Both the position numbers and the translations under genes were made by a program. From assembly GCA_902580215.1 (NCBI GenBank), contig CACHJT010000002.1, positions 72,425 to 136,424 of the forward strand: DNA of 64,000 nt. Direction: 5' to 3'. This DNA comes from an uncultured Candidatus Actinomarina sp. (GTDB lineage Bacteria > Actinomycetota > Acidimicrobiia > Actinomarinales > Actinomarinaceae). The notes under the pieces were generated by a model that did no database searches, was not told the origin of the DNA, and worked only from the letters and a program-made list of their open reading frames with translations. This document shows positions 1,732 to 36,607 of the stretch, piece after piece; position 1 is the stretch's first letter, and each line of letters opens with the position of its first letter.

Positions 1732-2523
1732 ATGAAAAAAATGGATGTTCACATAGTTGGGTTAGGGAATCTAGGATCTGCTTTTCTCAATGGTTTAAAA
1801 GATTTAGATGTAAACATGTTCTTATATGAGGAATCAAACGAAGCAAGACAGTCCATACAAAAGAATTATTCAATAAGCCCTGAAGAATCTTTAACTGCTA
1901 TTAGGGGTGGTGTTTTACTTTTATGTATCAAGCCTCAGAACATAAATGAATTTTTTAATACTCACAAAGATAAAATTGAAAAAGATGTTTTAATTTGTAC
2001 TCCAGTTGCAGGTCTAGAAATTAAAACAATTGAAAAAAATCTTGATAATAACATTTTAAGAATTATGCCTAATTTACTTATACAAGATAAAACTGGTTTT
2101 ATTCCATATGCTTCAAATTATCAAGGAGATTATCTCAACTTCATCAAAAATATTTTAGAAAATTTAGGAACTGTAAAAGAAGTTGAAGAATCTATGTTCC
2201 CTATTGTTACTGCATTGTCAGGCAGCGGTCCTGCCTGGTTTTATGAGCTTTCAAATCAGCTTGTGAACTCTGGGACTGAGTTGGGATTAAGCTTAGAAGA
2301 TTCGGAGTTAATTATTAAAGAGCTTGTAAAAGCACTTCCATCACTTGTAGACGAAGATGAAACATTTAAAGATTTAGTAAATAAAGTAAAGTCACCTGGT
2401 GGAACTACCGAAGCAGGTCTCAATTCGCTTAATGATGATTCATTTGATACAATTATTCTCGATGCAATTCGCAAAGCAACTCAAAGATCTACTGAGATAG
2501 CAAAAGAATTAACAAATGAATAA
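1732..2523 (+). CDS. proC: Pyrroline-5-carboxylate reductase
   Basis: N-terminal Rossmann motif VGLGNLGSAF, a C-terminal KSPGGTTEAGL signature, and typical length (263 aa). Confidence 0.85.
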   Translation: MKKMDVHIVGLGNLGSAFLNGLKDLDVNMFLYEESNEARQSIQKNYSISPEESLTAIRGGVLLLCIKPQNINEFFNTHKDKIEKDVLICTPVAGLEIKTIEKNLDNNILRIMPNLLIQDKTGFIPYASNYQGDYLNFIKNILENLGTVKEVEESMFPIVTALSGSGPAWFYELSNQLVNSGTELGLSLEDSELIIKELVKALPSLVDEDETFKDLVNKVKSPGGTTEAGLNSLNDDSFDTIILDAIRKATQRSTEIAKELTNE

Positions 2524-4675
2524 GTTTTTAAATAAATACAAAGCTAATGATTATGTACTACTATTCTCCGCCGGTGCAGCAGTAGGTACACTTTTTTTAT
2601 GGGCAGCAAGCTATATATTTCCCGAAGGAGAAATAGTTGGAGGTAGAAGAGTATTTGAGAATATTCCTAAGGTCCTCCAATATATATTTTATGTTTTAAG
2701 TGCAACAACAATATATATTTCTGGATACTTATTTTCCCTTCGGGTAAAGAACTGGACTAGAGGCAAAGAAGAAAAAAGAGATGTGAAACTATCTCAAAGG
2801 ATATTAAAACTTTTTGATGGTTTGACTATGAGAACTGTTCTTAGGTTTAAAGCTGCTGGTCTTATGCACTCCTTGATTTACATTGGCTTTCTCGGTTTGT
2901 TTGCAGGCACTGTAACTTTAGAGATTCATCATCTTATGCCTCCTTCGTTGAAATTTTTACAAGGCACAACATATATTGTTTATTCTTTCACACTAGAACT
3001 GGCAACTATAGCTTATCTAACTGGTCTTTTTTGGGCATTAGCTAGGCGCTTAATTGGCACCGAGTACAGGATAAAAACTAAAACTACAATCGATGATTAT
3101 TTAACTCTTTCTCTGTTGATTTTTATTGGAATATCAGGGATAACTACTGAAGCAGGAAGAATCGCATTAGAAAATTTTCCAGATTATGAAAAATGGTCCT
3201 TTATTGGCTATGCCGTTGGTGATTTTTTAAACCTCTCGAATCCTGAACTTTTTCATAGGATTTCGTGGGTACTTCATGTTGTTTCTTTTTTTGTATTTTT
3301 AATAGCAATTCCATTGTCCAAACTTAGGCATATATTTACATCACCAATAAATATGTTTATGTCACCTAAGGAAAGACCTAAAGGTGCAATGAAATTTATT
3401 GGCAATCTTTTAGAGGCAGATGATATTGACAATGTAGGTACAGAAATTATTGATCACTTTACCTGGAAACAGTTAATGGATCTTGATGCCTGTACTGTTT
3501 GCGGTAGGTGTACATCTGTATGTCCTGCAAATCAAACTGGTAAGTCTTTAGACCCTAGGGAAATTATATTAAAAGTAGGGCAAGTGATGTCTGAATCTGG
3601 TCAACCTGCAGTACCTGCTACTGTTTCAACACCAGGTCCTTTACGTGTAAATTCTGACAATGTTTTTGAAAGAATTACTTCCGAAGAACTCTGGGCTTGT
3701 ACTTCTTGTAAAGCCTGCGATGAGATTTGCCCTGTGAATATTGAAATTTTAGACAAAATACTTGATATGAGAAGACATCTTGCATTGATGGAATCAGATT
3801 TTCCTGCAGAGTTAGGTAAGGCATATGTTGCGATGGAGAACTCCTCCAATCCATGGGGGGCTTCTCAAAACGACAGACTGAAATGGACTGAAGATCTAGA
3901 TTTTGATGTTCCTGTAATAGACGAAACTAACCATGAAGAGTATGACTATCTGTATTGGATCGGTTGTGCAGGAGCTTTTGATGATAGGAATGTACCTGTT
4001 ACAAAAGCTGTAGCAACGTTATTAAAAAGAGCAGGAGTTTCTTTTGCTGTTCTTGGACCAAAAGAAGTTTGTACAGGAGACTCTGCGAGAAGAACGGGTA
4101 ATGAATTTGTTTTTCAACAACTAGCTATTCAAAATATTGAGAATATGAATAATCTAAAAGTAGAAAAAATTATTACTCAGTGCCCACACTGTTTCAATAC
4201 AATAGCAAACGAGTATCCGCAACTTGGAGGAAACTATCAAGTAATTCATCACAGTCAACTTTTGACGGAGTTAGTTCAGTCAGGAAGAATTGAAGTAGGT
4301 ACTAGTGATAAGCCTTACAAAATCACCTATCATGATTCATGTTATTTGGGTAGACATAATGACATCTATACCGCACCACGAGAGATTGTAGGTTCTATAG
4401 GTGGTATTGAGATTAGAGAAATGAAAAGACAGGGAACTCAAAGCTTTTGTTGCGGTGCCGGTGGCGGAAGAATGTGGATGGAGGAATCTACGGGTAAAAA
4501 AGTAAACATTGAGCGTTCACAAGAAGCCATTGATACCGGGGCTGACGAAGTTGCTGTTGCGTGTCCTTTTTGCTACATAATGATGGACGATGGTGTGAAA
4601 GAGTTGGGCTATGGAGACAATGTAAAAGTACGAGATGTGTCTCTTATATTGTTAGATAATCTGAAAAAGGATTAG
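2516..4675 (+). CDS. Membrane-anchored Fe-S oxidoreductase: N-terminal polytopic domain, 2x[4Fe-4S] ferredoxin motifs and two CCG cysteine-rich domains (HdrD/GlpC-like, Rv0338c-like)
   Basis: About 270 aa of hydrophobic helices, then CTVCGRCTSVCP and CTSCKACDEICP. These are followed by the CCG-type motifs WIGCAGAFD, CPHCF, SFCCGAGGG and ACPFC. Confidence 0.8.
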   Translation: MNKFLNKYKANDYVLLFSAGAAVGTLFLWAASYIFPEGEIVGGRRVFENIPKVLQYIFYVLSATTIYISGYLFSLRVKNWTRGKEEKRDVKLSQRILKLFDGLTMRTVLRFKAAGLMHSLIYIGFLGLFAGTVTLEIHHLMPPSLKFLQGTTYIVYSFTLELATIAYLTGLFWALARRLIGTEYRIKTKTTIDDYLTLSLLIFIGISGITTEAGRIALENFPDYEKWSFIGYAVGDFLNLSNPELFHRISWVLHVVSFFVFLIAIPLSKLRHIFTSPINMFMSPKERPKGAMKFIGNLLEADDIDNVGTEIIDHFTWKQLMDLDACTVCGRCTSVCPANQTGKSLDPREIILKVGQVMSESGQPAVPATVSTPGPLRVNSDNVFERITSEELWACTSCKACDEICPVNIEILDKILDMRRHLALMESDFPAELGKAYVAMENSSNPWGASQNDRLKWTEDLDFDVPVIDETNHEEYDYLYWIGCAGAFDDRNVPVTKAVATLLKRAGVSFAVLGPKEVCTGDSARRTGNEFVFQQLAIQNIENMNNLKVEKIITQCPHCFNTIANEYPQLGGNYQVIHHSQLLTELVQSGRIEVGTSDKPYKITYHDSCYLGRHNDIYTAPREIVGSIGGIEIREMKRQGTQSFCCGAGGGRMWMEESTGKKVNIERSQEAIDTGADEVAVACPFCYIMMDDGVKELGYGDNVKVRDVSLILLDNLKKD

Positions 4676-5020: not shown

Positions 5021-5638
5021 ATGAGTGAAAGACAAATATTCTCAAAAATTTTACGTCTTGATAAATATATTTATAATGAGCTTCTTAATCTAAATGGTGC
5101 ACTGCAAAAGGGAATTGCTATTTATTTAGCAGTCGCAACCTTAACTACTTTGAGTGCTTTCAGATTTTTTAATGGCATGATTGAATTCCTTGAAAGCAAC
5201 CTTGTTCTTTTTCAAGGTGAAATGTCAGAAGAAGAGTTTCAGATGTTTAGGTCTTTGATCGATGAATTATCTGTTATTTTTGTTCAGCAAGATTCGACTA
5301 CATCAGTATTGATTTCATCAATCGTATCAACCAGTGTTACGACAGTAGTTGGGCTTGTAATATGTTTTTTGATTCTTAAATTTCTGTTTAGAAAAGATCC
5401 AAAACCAATTGATATACTTATAATTTCATTCTTTTCAAGTGTTCCAGGACTACTTGTATTTCCTGCGTTGTTTATACAAAACCCACTTCTACAAGCATTA
5501 TTAGTTTTTATAACTTCGATCTACGCACTAATTGCATTTGGCTCTGGCATAAAGCAGGTTTACTTATTAAGAAATATTGAAGTTGTCCTTGTTGTCATTG
5601 CACTAACATTCGGTGGTTCAATTTTAGGATCAGGATAG
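5021..5638 (+). CDS. Hypothetical polytopic membrane protein (possibly Yip1-like)
   Basis: A 205-aa ORF with a soluble N-terminal ~30 aa followed by about 5 hydrophobic segments. The Yip1 resemblance rests on architecture only. Confidence 0.45.
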   Translation: MSERQIFSKILRLDKYIYNELLNLNGALQKGIAIYLAVATLTTLSAFRFFNGMIEFLESNLVLFQGEMSEEEFQMFRSLIDELSVIFVQQDSTTSVLISSIVSTSVTTVVGLVICFLILKFLFRKDPKPIDILIISFFSSVPGLLVFPALFIQNPLLQALLVFITSIYALIAFGSGIKQVYLLRNIEVVLVVIALTFGGSILGSG

Positions 5639-5640
5639 TT

Positions 5641-6237
5641 TTGAATGCTGCAGTAATTTTAGCCGCAGGTAGCTCAAGCAGAATGGGATTTCCTAAACAG
5701 TTAGCTGAAGTTAGGGATAAACCATTACTCCAAGCAATAATTGATAAAGTTAACATTAATTTTGATAACTCTTCTGTAGTGCTGGGGTCTGAAAATGAAA
5801 TAATTTCAGAAAAAATAGATTTTAAAAATTCAAATATCCTTATTAATGAAAATTGGCCAGAGGGTATCACATCATCAATTAGGACAGCTTTATTTTTCTA
5901 TCAAAATCAAAAAGAGATTAATAATATAATTTTTTTCCTCGGGGACCAACCAGAAGTCGAAGTTGAAGTAATAGATGGTCTCAACAACGATGACCATGAC
6001 GGAAGTAAGGTTTTGGTTCCTCAATATAGATACAAACTAGGATTTCCAATTTTAATTCCGAGAATATTTTGGACGAAATTAGAACTGATAACGGAAGACG
6101 ATGAAGTTGATGAAGAAAAATCAGTATTTCAAGATTTTGATTTAGTTGATTTTCTTATCTCGTCAGAAATTGAAATCAAAAAAATAAATTTCAATTTTTT
6201 AGAACCTATTGATTATGACGAGGAAAAAGATTTTTGA
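5641..6237 (+). CDS. MobA/MocA-like nucleotidyltransferase (NTP_transf_3) with an acidic C-terminal tail
   Basis: The N-terminal AAVILAAGSSSRMGFPKQL motif is the MobA/MocA signature. The TTG start abuts the upstream stop. The C-terminus is rich in D/E. Confidence 0.6.
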   Translation: MNAAVILAAGSSSRMGFPKQLAEVRDKPLLQAIIDKVNINFDNSSVVLGSENEIISEKIDFKNSNILINENWPEGITSSIRTALFFYQNQKEINNIIFFLGDQPEVEVEVIDGLNNDDHDGSKVLVPQYRYKLGFPILIPRIFWTKLELITEDDEVDEEKSVFQDFDLVDFLISSEIEIKKINFNFLEPIDYDEEKDF

Positions 6238-8443: not shown

Positions 8444-9268
8444 TTGTATTTGATTAATGATTTGGAAGTTACAAAAGACGAATTTACTTTGCCTGTTGAA
8501 AATTTAGCGGTATGGAGAGGAGATGGGGTCTTTGAAGCTTTGAAGATTCATGACCACTATCCCTTTGGGTTAGAGAAACATATAGACAGGTTAAAACAGT
8601 CTTGCAAAAAACAACTATTTGACAATGTAGATTTTAATTTGGTCAAAAACAATATTTTAAAAATAGCATCAATCCATAAAAGTGGCTATGTGAGAGTATT
8701 AATATTAAGAAATGAATCAGACGACGATTTTACAATTTATTCTTTTTATCAACCATTATTAAATTTACCCGAAAAATTTACATTGCAATCTCAACCCGCT
8801 CCATGGCATGCCGGTGGAGATTATGAAGTTGATAGTAAAAATATAGTCGGTTCAAAATCTACTTCCTATGCTTATAACATAAAGCAAACCAGAGAAGCAG
8901 TTAGAGATGGTTTTACAGATGCCTTGCTCATCAATAATAAGGGCATAGTTTTAGAAGGCCCAACTTTTTGTGTTGGTTGGATTCAGGATGAAGTTGTTTA
9001 TGTACCAGATCTTGATTTGGGAATTTTAGACTCAATAACTCGACAGTATTTATTGAAGTTTGGTGAGGAAGACAAGATTCAAGTATCTGTTTCTAGAGTG
9101 ACAATAGATGAACTCTATAAAGTTGATACAGTTTTTGTAATGTCTACAGCTAAACATGGAGTATTTGTTTCCAAGATTGATAATCAAGTTTTTGAGCAGT
9201 CACCTTTATTAGTTACGATACAAGATTTATTTGCGAAAGAAGTTCTTAAGGAAAAGCAAGAAAGTTAA
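8444..9268 (+). CDS. Class IV (fold-type IV) PLP aminotransferase / aminodeoxychorismate-lyase-like protein
   Basis: 274 aa with an N-terminal GDGVFEALK motif, and size and layout typical of the IlvE/PabC/Dat family. TTG start preceded by GAAAGAGGA. Confidence 0.7.
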   Translation: MYLINDLEVTKDEFTLPVENLAVWRGDGVFEALKIHDHYPFGLEKHIDRLKQSCKKQLFDNVDFNLVKNNILKIASIHKSGYVRVLILRNESDDDFTIYSFYQPLLNLPEKFTLQSQPAPWHAGGDYEVDSKNIVGSKSTSYAYNIKQTREAVRDGFTDALLINNKGIVLEGPTFCVGWIQDEVVYVPDLDLGILDSITRQYLLKFGEEDKIQVSVSRVTIDELYKVDTVFVMSTAKHGVFVSKIDNQVFEQSPLLVTIQDLFAKEVLKEKQES

Positions 9269-9278
9269 GGAGGGTAAA

Positions 9279-10307
9279 GTGAGACTCACAGAGTATTCTC
9301 ATGGCTCAGGTTGAGCATGTAAACTCTCCCAAGGAGAGCTTGCTCAGGTTCTGAAGCAATCAAAACAAAATAATTTAAACAATTCTGAAGTTTTAGTGGG
9401 GTTAGAAAATCCAGATGATGGCGCGGTTATTGATCTAGGCAATAAAACTAAAATTGTACAAACAGTTGATTTTTTTACGCCTATATTAGATAACCCCTAC
9501 GATTGGGGTAGAGTTGCTGCAACAAATGCCTTATCTGATATATATGCCATGGGTGGTACACCTATTTCATCTTTACAGTTAGTAAGTTGGCCAAGAGAAG
9601 ATATAGGTTTTGATGTCTTATCAGATGTTATTAGGGGAGGCTCAGATGTAATGAAGTCTGCCAATTGCAATATTGTTGGAGGGCACAGTATTGATGACAA
9701 AGAACCAAAATATGGTTTTGCCGTAACAGGTATCGTTAATGAAAAAATCTATACAAAAACGAATATTAAAAATGGAGATAAACTTTTTCTAACCAAGCCT
9801 CTCGGTTCTGGAATTATTGCAACCGCAATAAAAAAAGGAGTTGCCGATGAAGAAGCAATAAATCAGGTAACAAATGTAATGACAACCCTAAATGATGCAG
9901 GCCTTGAAGTCGCAAAGCACCTCAATGCAAATGCAATTACAGACGTTACTGGTTTTGGACTTCTTGGCCACCTGAGTGAAATGTTGATTGATGAAAAATT
10001 ATCAGCAAATTTGATATTCGATAAAGTTCCAATCATTGAGTTTGCAAAAAATTATTTTCATAGTGGCATTTATCCATCAGGAAGCCAAAGAAATTTAGAC
10101 TCAGTAAAAGACATTATCTCATTCGAGGATCAAGACGAGGCACTTTTATTAGCAGATGCTCAAACCAGTGGAGGATTATTAATTTCTGCACCTGCTGAAA
10201 CAGATATAGATTTGATAGAAATTGAAAAAATATATGGAGTTTTTCTAAAAGAAATTGGAAATATAACTGATAGATATAATCAAAAAATAAATATTATTAG
10301 TAGTTGA
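9279..10307 (+). CDS. selD: Selenophosphate synthetase SelD with an in-frame UGA (selenocysteine) codon at 9312-9314
   Basis: The track ORF (9396..10307) carries SelD motifs (DFFTPILDNPYDWGRVAATNALSDIYAMGG, GGHSIDD, DVTGFGLLGHLSEM). The same frame extends back to GTG 9279, which lies 5 nt after AAGGAGG. It reads VRLTEYSHGSG-TGA-ACKLSQGELAQVL, matching the E. coli loop RLTQYSHGAGCGCK with TGA at the catalytic Cys17 position. Confidence 0.85.
9312..9346 (+). promoter_or_regulatory. Putative bacterial SECIS hairpin starting at the selD UGA
   Basis: Lower stem 9312-9317 (TGAGCA) pairs with 9341-9346 (TGCTCA). Upper stem 9324-9329 (CTCTCC) pairs with 9333-9338 (GGAGAG). The apical loop is 9330-9332 (CAA), and there is an asymmetric internal loop. 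Confidence 0.45.
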
Positions 10308-11227
10308 TGATTAAAACACTAACTAAAATTTTTGCTTTTACTGCAGTAACAAAAAGCCTACTCGAGACCAAAAAGAGCCAATCTGCAGGAACTACACAAA
10401 TTCACCCAAGTAAAATTCCAGGCAGGACTGTATTCATAAGAGAAAAAGAATACTTTATTAGAGAAAATATTATAGACGGCACAACCCCTATAATATTTCT
10501 CCACAGCTGGGGGTCAGACTCCCTAGGAAGCTGGTTTAAAATATTGCCTAAAATTAAAAATGAAACCTCTTTTGTTGCTATAGATTTGCGTAATCATGGA
10601 AAGTCTGATGCTAGTTGGGACAGATGGGACGTAGATGAAAATGCCGATGTTGTTATTAGCATTCTAAAAGAGCTTGGCATTTCAAGTTGCAATATTGTTG
10701 GTTGGTCAATGGGAAGTGCAGTTGCAATGTCAATTGCCAAAAAAAATAAGCCATTAGTAAATAAATTAGTTTTAATTACACCTTTTAGCTGGCTTGGTGG
10801 TGCTGTGTATAGCGATAAAGTAGCATTTAAAATATTTGTTAGTTTTGTAAGAATAAGAGAAAGATTATTCCCTAATTTCAATCCAAAATCTAAGTTTTCA
10901 TTTTTAAAAAAATCAAACTCTATTAACGATGAATATACAGAGTGGGCATGGAACAATCTGCATAAATCAAAAGATGACTTCATTTACGCAGATGGGGGAA
11001 GATTTGTTGTTCCTTATGATGCAAGGTCTTGGATACAAGAAATTGAAGCTGAGACCCTAGTAATTACTGGGGGTAGAGATAAACTTGTACCAGAAGAAAC
11101 TTCAAATGATGTTGTTAAGAGATTAAAAGAAGTAAAAGTGAAAACTTTTCCTGATGCTGGCCACTCAGTTCCATGGACACATGAAGAAGATCTATTAACA
11201 GAACTTAGAGAATTTTTTAGTTTATGA
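10307..11227 (+). CDS. Alpha/beta-fold hydrolase
   Basis: Nucleophile elbow GWSMGS, an HG-type oxyanion region (IIFLHSWG) and a C-terminal DAGH catalytic His context. ATG 10307 shares one nt with the selD TGA; TTG 10304 is the alternative start used in the track. Confidence 0.7.
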   Translation: MIKTLTKIFAFTAVTKSLLETKKSQSAGTTQIHPSKIPGRTVFIREKEYFIRENIIDGTTPIIFLHSWGSDSLGSWFKILPKIKNETSFVAIDLRNHGKSDASWDRWDVDENADVVISILKELGISSCNIVGWSMGSAVAMSIAKKNKPLVNKLVLITPFSWLGGAVYSDKVAFKIFVSFVRIRERLFPNFNPKSKFSFLKKSNSINDEYTEWAWNNLHKSKDDFIYADGGRFVVPYDARSWIQEIEAETLVITGGRDKLVPEETSNDVVKRLKEVKVKTFPDAGHSVPWTHEEDLLTELREFFSL

Positions 11228-35826: not shown

Positions 35827-35861
35827 TTTTCTATATTAAACATGTATATCTTATAAAGTAG

Positions 35862-35953
35862 CGGAGGTGGACAGGAATCGAACCTGCCAAAGACTTTTAC
35901 ACCTTTCAACAGTTTTGAAGACTGTGGAGCCCACCAGGCGCTCATTCACCTCC
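35862..35953 (-). tRNA. selC: tRNA-Sec (anticodon UCA) with a long variable arm, 92 nt, no encoded CCA
   Basis: The reverse complement reads GGAGGTGAATGAGCGCCTGGTGGGCTCCACAGTCTTCAAAACTGTTGAAAGGTGTAAAAGTCTTTGGCAGGTTCGATTCCTGTCCACCTCCG. The acceptor GGAGGTG pairs with CACCTCC. The anticodon stem ACAGT/ACTGT encloses the loop CTTCAAA, giving anticodon UCA. The extra arm is ~21 nt, the T arm is CAGG-TTCGATT-CCTG, and the discriminator is G. Confidence 0.85.
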
Positions 35954-36004
35954 GTACTTAAGACTAGTTATATAAAAAAAATTATATTGAATAGAATTAA
36001 AGTA

Positions 36005-36607
36005 ATGAATAATTTTCAAATAGAATTTAAAAGACTTAAAGCTGATAGAGGCTTAAGTAATAAACAGATCGCTTCTTTTACAGGGGTAAAAGTAAAAGAT
36101 GTTAAGCAATGGGAAGCTGGAACAAGTTTTCCTACGGATAAAAAAATTATTAATGCTCTTGAAGGATTGTTAGGTACTGAAATAACACAGACACTTGATG
36201 GGTTCTCAACAGAACAACTAAAAGAAGTAGGTTCATTATTAACTGAAGAAAGTCTCTTCTCAATAAAAAATGATGATGTGCAAATTAAACAAACTAGAAT
36301 TGATAAACTTCGAAATACCTTCCAAAGAAAAGAATCAACACTAAATGATTTTGATTATGAATCAGTTGAGGTTTCTGAGGTAAAAGAAGAAACTTTAGAA
36401 GAATATCTTACAAAACCAGTACAAACTACTAATCTTCTTGAATTTTCCGACGAAGAGCCATACATATATGATCAAAAACAAATTGGATTTTATTTCACTC
36501 GAAATCTCAAAACAACTGCTTTGCTTCTGGTGCTTTGTATTGTTATTTATAATTCATTCTCCTTATTTTGGGATTCACTTAGAACATTTTTAGATAATTT
36601 ATTGTGA
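36005..36607 (+). CDS. Membrane-anchored XRE-type helix-turn-helix protein (RodZ/anti-sigma-like topology)
   Basis: From ATG 36005 the protein reads MNNFQIEFKRLKADRGLSNKQIASFTGVKVKDVKQWEAG (HTH). It continues with an acidic linker and a single C-terminal TM segment (TTALLLVLCIVIYNSFSLFW). The track's longer N-terminus (35867) overlaps the tRNA and was discarded. Confidence 0.6.
   Translation: MNNFQIEFKRLKADRGLSNKQIASFTGVKVKDVKQWEAGTSFPTDKKIINALEGLLGTEITQTLDGFSTEQLKEVGSLLTEESLFSIKNDDVQIKQTRIDKLRNTFQRKESTLNDFDYESVEVSEVKEETLEEYLTKPVQTTNLLEFSDEEPYIYDQKQIGFYFTRNLKTTALLLVLCIVIYNSFSLFWDSLRTFLDNLL

Follow-up and report, generated by a model that had tools for sequence, protein, structure and literature searches.

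In the DNA of an uncultured Candidatus Actinomarina species, the open reading frame (ORF) track begins the selenophosphate synthetase gene selD at position 9396 and leaves an unassigned gap in front of it. The same frame can be followed upstream to a GTG at position 9279, through a single in-frame UGA codon. This raises the question of whether selD is a shorter gene behind an untranslated leader, a gene disrupted by a stop codon, or itself a selenoprotein gene in which UGA specifies selenocysteine (Sec). The stretch analysed, referred to here as the window, comprises 64,000 nucleotides, and positions are counted from its first letter. Based on the evidence discussed below, it is very probable that Actinomarina selD is a selenoprotein gene which starts at GTG 9279 and whose UGA codon 12 is read as Sec.

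Reading frame, product and conservation of selD

The locus comprises the following features:

9267–9273, plus strand: Shine–Dalgarno sequence AAGGAGG, 5 nt 5' of GTG 9279, overlapping the stop codon of the upstream gene
9279–9281, plus strand: GTG start codon of selD; relatives have ATG, GTG or TTG at the same position
9279–10307, plus strand: full coding sequence of selD, predicted Sec-type selenophosphate synthetase; 342 codons and a TGA stop
9312–9314, plus strand: in-frame UGA, predicted Sec codon 12, corresponding to Cys17 of E. coli; TGA in 80 of 80 related loci
9396–9398, plus strand: GTG chosen by the ORF track, an artefactual start that is the Val40 codon of the real protein and has no ribosome-binding site

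The initial annotation had read selD from GTG 9279 through an in-frame TGA at 9312–9314 with no further stop, and direct reading bears these coordinates out. The frame of 342 codons beginning at GTG 9279–9281 is interrupted between 9279 and 10304 solely by TGA 9312–9314 and is terminated by TGA 10305–10307, which a second TGA adjoins. The internal TGA lies in the same frame as the listed ORF (9396–10307). The upstream gene ends at 9268 (stop TAA 9266–9268), leaving in the ORF track the gap of 127 nt (9269–9395) remarked on in the initial annotation, and the AAGGAGG described 5 nt before the GTG is present at 9267–9273. As translated, the N-terminus is VRLTEYSHGSG-[TGA]-ACKLSQGELAQVL, with the loop reading V-R-L-T-E-Y-S-H-G-S-G-[TGA]-A-C-K-L. 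At the base composition of the window, the probability of 38 codons staying open is ~0.06, and an upstream in-frame TGA following at least 11 open codons is found for 7 of the 54 long ORFs in the window. The open frame alone is therefore not rare here, and its significance rests on homology and conservation.

For the family searches, the TGA was replaced by Cys in the 342-residue query. The query matched TIGR00476 with 379.2 bits (cutoff 125), its residues 2–307 of 342 covering profile positions 1–309 of 311, and NF002098 with 355.1 bits (cutoff 299; residues 1–337). The extended product is SelD from residue 1–2 onward, and the family assigned to the 342-codon product in the initial annotation was the right one. 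Close homologues carry the precomputed Pfam domains PF00586 and PF02769, that is, an AIR-synthase-like two-domain fold. The best match among solved structures in a phmmer search was E. coli SelD (3U0O, E = 4.9e-80), alignable over 330 residues. Residue 1 of the query pairs with chain residue 6 of 3U0O, and no gap falls across the loop, so that the glycine-rich N-terminal loops SHGSG-U-ACK and SHGAG-C-GCK of E. coli match without interruption. In this ungapped alignment U12 falls on E. coli Cys17, C14 on Cys19 and K15 on Lys20, which places the TGA at the catalytic cysteine, where it had been proposed to lie, with Cys19 and Lys20 conserved. Asp is also found at all four positions aligned to E. 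coli D51, D68, D91 and D227, which we take to be ATP and metal ligands. The Actinomarina protein thus has the catalytic loop and the Asp residues at these positions in common with the E. coli enzyme, which is of the Cys17 type, and differs from it in the predicted replacement of Cys by Sec at this position.

Scanning of one genome per GTDB species yielded 80 loci for comparison, 60 from Actinomarinales, 9 from other Acidimicrobiia and 11 from Nitrospirota, which span two phyla and 39–99% protein identity. The closest of these (99% identity) belong to single-cell genomes of Candidatus Actinomarina, and the G+C content of the window is 31–37%; the very reduced actinobacterial-type genome suspected at the outset is that of Candidatus Actinomarina. 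The aligned codon is TGA in all 80 loci, and a search pattern permitting Cys returned Cys at this site in none of the 80. The context S-[HR]-G-[SA]-G-TGA-A-C-K occurs in the 60 Actinomarinales-type loci and in the 9 loci from other Acidimicrobiia, while the 11 Nitrospirota loci have S-C-[AS]-G-TGA-A-[SA]-K-F. The comparison of TGA with Cys in relatives thus came out in favour of the initial reading, with the frame and the S-H-G-x-G-U-A-C-K loop kept. Among the 120 closest database proteins, none has Cys at the site either; 111 show W, the TGA having been read under genetic code 4, and the remaining 9 are truncated after the site.

The upstream 117 nt had been open to the objection that they might evolve like non-coding sequence. 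Their evolution is of the coding type instead, with third positions varying most: across 44 distinct sequences and 26 ungapped codons around the site, the mean column entropy is 0.40, 0.27 and 1.09 for the first, second and third codon position, respectively. Codon differences from the window comprise 328 synonymous and 167 nonsynonymous changes, and the stretch from 11 codons before the TGA to 39 codons behind it is free of extra stops in all 70 loci. At the conserved start position, 24 loci have ATG, 19 have GTG and 18 have TTG; in those inspected, a GGAGG-type motif precedes the start codon. Taken together, the third-position variation, the excess of synonymous changes and the lack of extra stops indicate that the extension is coding. 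The 117 nt are thus coding sequence under purifying selection, in which the TGA is maintained rather than accidental.

A candidate SECIS element downstream of the UGA

From the established bacterial pathway, insertion of Sec at the UGA and binding of SelB to an mRNA hairpin would be expected. Two hairpins follow the codon:

9324–9338, plus strand: hairpin H1, CUCUCC-CAA-GGAGAG, loop 15 nt after the UGA; partly conserved, possible spacer or helper helix
9340–9359, plus strand: hairpin H2, UUGCUCAG-GUU-CUGA(A)GCAA, likely SECIS, loop 33 nt after the UGA; G9348 and U9349 invariant

H2 emerged from RNAalifold on 26 sequences and from counting pairs explicitly in 51 distinct sequences. In its four-pair core, 96.6% of cells are paired, compared with 33–50% when the partners are slid by 1–3 columns as a control. 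In the core, 42 cells have changed on both sides, as against 12.1 ± 3.6 in shuffled alignments, and none of 500 shuffles reached the observed value. Pair 36–46 is particularly variable in identity (UA 28, CG 12, GC 8 and AU 3) and is never unpaired. Pair 39–43 alternates between G-C (24) and A-U (18) through the codons CAG/CAA for Gln and CUG/UUG for Leu; because both changes are synonymous, this switch would not be explicable by the protein sequence. The loop opens with G9348 and U9349 in every one of the 51 distinct sequences. For the hairpin as a whole, the conserved peptide E-L-A-Q-V-L is a partial confounder of the observed conservation. The lower stem is bulged in Actinomarinales and free of bulges in the other Acidimicrobiia and in Nitrospirota. 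The Cys-type selD of E. coli, used as a negative control, has none of the four H2 pairs, carries AUC in place of GUU, and folds locally with -1.5 kcal/mol, as opposed to -6.2 kcal/mol for H2 in the window; the E. coli mRNA has no hairpin at this place.

On the basis of the covariation and the invariant loop, H2 is most likely the SelB-binding element. Like the SECIS of E. coli fdhF, it is an intracoding stem-loop that closely follows the UGA on the 3' side, its apical loop containing G-U and its stem a bulged nucleotide. In fdhF, however, the GGUC loop lies 18 nt after the UGA, whereas in Actinomarina selD the GUU loop lies at 33 nt and an extra hairpin intervenes. Sequence homology between the two hairpins is not expected. 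The bSECISearch model reportedly allows a distance of ~16–37 nt from UGA to loop, and the GU loop of H2 at 33 nt would fall within this range, at its far end.

It is also conceivable, if unlikely, that SelB binds H1 (9324–9338), or H1 and H2 as a bipartite element, rather than H2 alone; this would change the mechanism only and not the identity of the gene. The loop of H1, at 15 nt after the UGA, is near the 18 nt of fdhF, and in the window H1 is more stable than H2 (-8.0 versus -6.2 kcal/mol). A hairpin fills the H1 interval in all three clades, and H1 and H2 together amount to -14.2 kcal/mol, close to the minimum free energy (MFE) of -15.0 kcal/mol. However, only 71% of H1 cells are paired, the register of the helix depends on the clade, and neither G nor U is conserved in the loop, whereas H2 covaries strongly and has an invariant GU in its loop. 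The preferred reading, therefore, keeps H2 as the putative SECIS and H1 as a possible spacer or helper.

The single-sequence MFE structure of the window itself contains a different outer stem, in which UGAGCA (9312–9317) pairs with UGCUCA (9341–9346) around the inner hairpin CUCUCC-CAA-GGAGAG (z = -2.96). This stem was rejected as a conserved element: it covaries less than the mean of the shuffles, and in 23 sequences it is disrupted by changes in column 36, for which H2 has compensating changes.

The search against Rfam gave no match to a SECIS family, whether at the gathering threshold or with E values up to 10. Little weight can be placed on the missing match, because Rfam covers bacterial SECIS elements poorly. 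The region returned two chance lncRNA matches and nothing else.

Decoding of the UGA and competing readings

The gene for the tRNA that would decode the UGA lies in the same window:

35861–35953, minus strand: tRNA-Sec gene (selC), anticodon UCA, decodes UGA; found by ARAGORN and Rfam RF01852

The initial annotation had given this gene as 35862–35953. It is real and, with one nucleotide added, extends over 35861–35953 of the minus strand: ARAGORN called a tRNA-Sec with anticodon TCA, and RF01852 independently matched with 75.4 bits (gathering score 47). Its neighbours are hflX, gnd, pepN and a gene for an F420-dependent oxidoreductase.

The neighbourhood of selD itself holds genes for a MocA-like transferase, a DUF4332 protein, nadE and a class-IV aminotransferase (PabC-like), and further an alpha/beta hydrolase, a GT4 glycosyltransferase and rmuC. 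Near the MocA-like gene, nothing of the selenium-cofactor trait YqeB/YqeC was found.

Within the 64-kb window selA and selB are absent, every ORF of at least 400 amino acids belonging to another family. Likewise, tblastn with E. coli SelA and SelB probes detected neither gene in the window or the 80 loci; the probes gave only one weak GTPase-like match, in a Nitrospirota locus. That the genome contains selA and selB is taken from the literature discussed below.

A search of the window for other selenoprotein genes combined a filter for in-frame TGA with open flanks and a filter for a GU-loop hairpin 14–40 nt 3' of the TGA, which small selenoproteins with a different SECIS could escape; selD alone survived both. 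Five other combinations of TGA and GU-loop hairpin in the window were discarded, as they lie inside annotated genes, either out of frame or antisense.

Among the readings that dispense with Sec, the one that fares best, although very improbable, is readthrough of the UGA by other means, either through reassignment under code 4 or 25 or through near-cognate insertion of Trp, Cys or Arg as in the insect SPS1-UGA. Many public gene calls do use code 4 and place W at the site, and in Hymenoptera, SPS genes are documented to undergo readthrough that does not involve Sec (PMC4561486). However, UGA is not a general sense codon here and otherwise serves as an ordinary stop: the 55 ORFs that span at least 150 codons from stop to stop end in TAA (28), TGA (15, selD included) and TAG (12), and selD closes with TGA-TGA. 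The code-4 products run past this real terminator, giving C-termini of the form ...SSWWLKH. A dedicated tRNA-Sec gene is present, the UGA sits exactly at the catalytic position occupied by Cys or Sec in the family, and selA is reported in every complete genome (bioRxiv 10.64898/2026.04.03.716425). All of these speak for Sec.

It is more improbable still that the ORF track is right and that 9279–9395 is an untranslated leader resembling the N-terminus of SelD. Downstream of the TGA, GTG 9396 is the earliest start codon and is picked by standard gene callers, and database clusters of 290–303 amino acids exist. A product begun there would, however, be devoid of Sec/Cys17, Cys19 and Lys20, that is, of the entire catalytic loop. 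No Shine-Dalgarno-like sequence was found in the region before GTG 9396, in contrast to the strong one before 9279. An untranslated leader is also at odds with the coding-type variation at third positions, with the frame staying open in 70 loci and with a peptide loop conserved across two phyla. The start at 9396 is an artefact of gene calling, which arises because UGA is treated as a stop.

That selD is a pseudogene with a nonsense mutation, or the TGA a sequencing error, is hardly credible: a lone early in-frame stop does resemble a fresh nonsense mutation, and by itself the pattern is no rarity within the window, but the identical TGA recurs in 80 of 80 independent assemblies at 39–99% protein identity with purifying selection on both of its flanks.

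With UGA codon 12 read as Sec, expression of selD would proceed as follows. Translation would start at GTG 9279, with AAGGAGG serving as the ribosome-binding site. H2, preceded by the less conserved H1, would recruit SelB with GTP and Sec-tRNA(Sec), and the latter would place Sec at codon 12 (UGA 9312–9314). The outcome would be a selenophosphate synthetase of 342 residues with the loop SHGSG-U-ACK, in which Sec takes the place of E. coli Cys17. From within this flexible, glycine-rich loop, Sec12 would handle selenium during the ATP-dependent synthesis of selenophosphate, and SelA would use selenophosphate to convert Ser-tRNA(Sec) into Sec-tRNA(Sec). As SelA needs selenophosphate to make Sec-tRNA(Sec), the synthesis of SelD would depend on its own product. 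To our knowledge, this self-dependence is common to all organisms that have the Sec form as their sole SelD.

Distribution of the Sec form and significance

Sec-type SelD, or SPS2, is said to have been first recognised by Guimaraes et al. in 1996 in Haemophilus influenzae and Methanococcus jannaschii. Among bacterial selenoproteins, the FdhA and SelD families are the two most widespread, and Sec-decoding organisms without FdhA all have a Sec-type SelD (PMC1794560). Among the selenoprotein families of the GOS data, SelD is second in abundance, with 357 Sec-type sequences in 40 samples (PMC2398784). A bacterial SECIS in Sec-type selD genes has also been noted previously (PMC4561486). The Actinomarina gene has the marks of known Sec-type SelD/SPS2, namely membership in TIGR00476, the position of the predicted Sec, a loop with Cys and Lys, a UGA followed by an mRNA hairpin, and a tRNA-Sec; nothing essential differs.

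For Actinomarina itself, Nielsen and Lui ('Actinomarina, resolved', April 2026, bioRxiv 10.64898/2026.04.03.716425) reported selA, selC and selD in 84 of 84 complete genomes. A divergent selB candidate was found in all 84; the identity of SelB is weakly assigned, because the candidate scores 268, below the KofamScan threshold of 306. The same preprint found no selenouridine synthase. Its selD was called a selenoprotein by deep-Sep, with a length of 342–346 amino acids and an MRLT prefix. Rfam models gave no SECIS in that study, whose authors also noted the poor coverage of bacterial SECIS elements by Rfam (bioRxiv 10.64898/2026.04.03.716425). The organism group, the gene and the conclusion are thus the same as here. 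The Sec-type selD of Actinomarina is real and the interpretation given to it correct, but it is already known and would not surprise a specialist.

The two studies differ on two points. Firstly, the preprint describes no SECIS, whereas a covarying hairpin is put forward here as a candidate. Secondly, the preprint inferred the Sec form in about half of the genomes and presumed the others to be of the Cys type, based on 56 deep-Sep predictions with the MRLT prefix among 113 genomes (bioRxiv 10.64898/2026.04.03.716425). In contrast, no Cys was found in the 60 Actinomarinales loci or in the 120 closest proteins examined here. deep-Sep accepts ATG, CTG and GTG only as start codons (PMC12013277), and the families in the preprint were grouped by identical first 20 residues (bioRxiv 10.64898/2026.04.03.716425). 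As 37 of 61 Actinomarinales selD genes start with GTG or TTG, the figure of one half would seem to be a technical undercount that stems from the handling of start codons. The Sec form appears to be universal in the order rather than restricted to half of the genomes.

A broader proposal, plausible but tentative, can be built on these observations. Sec-type SelD may be fixed across Actinomarinales and the neighbouring Acidimicrobiia, with the 'half Cys' estimate being a start-codon artefact. The putative two-hairpin SECIS, with its GU loop ~33 nt from the UGA, may be shared with the selD of Nitrospirota, and it could have co-evolved with the unusually divergent SelB of the lineage.

To the published picture, the present analysis adds that no relative examined has a Cys variant and that a candidate SECIS has been identified. 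Its main use lies in annotation. Gene callers either cut 39 codons from selD, the catalytic loop included, or mistranslate it with code 4, and both errors are widespread in public databases for a bacterium that ranks among the most abundant in the surface ocean. For the biology of the organism, a genome of ~1 Mb keeps a full selenocysteine system whose supply enzyme would be self-dependent, as is already in the literature. The covarying SECIS candidate could seed a lineage-specific model for finding the other ~five selenoproteins per genome.

Genes around selD and the tRNA-Sec gene

Four further features of the window stood out:
2516-4675, gene for a 719-aa fusion protein that joins a NarI-like membrane domain to a 4Fe-4S dicluster and two CCG domains
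5021-6237, region of a MocA/YgfJ-like nucleotidyltransferase, 3 kb upstream of selD
10304 (TTG start), alpha/beta hydrolase gene directly after selD, overlapping the selD stop TGA at 10305-10307
35867-36607, plus strand, mechanically listed ORF overlapping the opposite-strand tRNA-Sec gene (region 35861-36607)

The selD stop is directly followed by a second in-frame TGA, and the tight packing at 10304-10310 suggests that selD and the hydrolase gene are translationally coupled. The MocA/YgfJ-like family goes with the SelD-dependent molybdenum-hydroxylase trait in some genomes. The protein encoded here scored 98 bits against TIGR03310, under the cutoff of 186; neither YqeB nor YqeC was found near its gene in the window, and an adjoining 205-aa ORF had no family match. 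The fusion protein is HdrD/GlpC/TfrB-like, and selenoproteins occur among related families in other organisms; no in-frame TGA was seen in its gene (2516-4675). As for the ORF at the tRNA-Sec gene, the portion from 35990 on gave weak helix-turn-helix matches and nothing else, so its true start is probably downstream of the tRNA.

Public records of selD

Most public metagenome gene calls of selD (window 9279-10310; P0001-P0120, the 120 closest database proteins) used genetic code 4. Trp accordingly stands at the Sec codon in 111 of the 120, and many of the code-4 calls read through the true TGA-TGA terminator to give ...SSWWLKH, while the remaining proteins are cut at an internal GTG or ATG. 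Actinomarina protein sets in databases may be systematically mistranslated.

Four contigs among the related loci (L029, L041, L044 and L063) carry selD of Actinomarinales or Acidimicrobiia type, sharing 98%, 60%, 59% and 49% of positions with the window. The MAGs to which they belong bear the labels Melainabacteria, Methanosarcinales, Methanobacteriota and Verrucomicrobiales, which probably reflects mis-binning.

Sec-type selD and its hairpins in Nitrospirota

Sec-type selD was also found in Nitrospirota (loci L067, L070 and L072-L080), with the loop S-C-[AS]-G-U-A-[SA]-K-F; the region concerned lies some 80-100 nt before the match start. The same GU-loop hairpin, the likely SECIS, occurs at the same columns and is stronger (up to 9 bp, -14 kcal/mol), with a short GUCC-UUC-GGAC hairpin ahead of it. 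The matching arrangement hints at a selD-specific SECIS architecture of old age.
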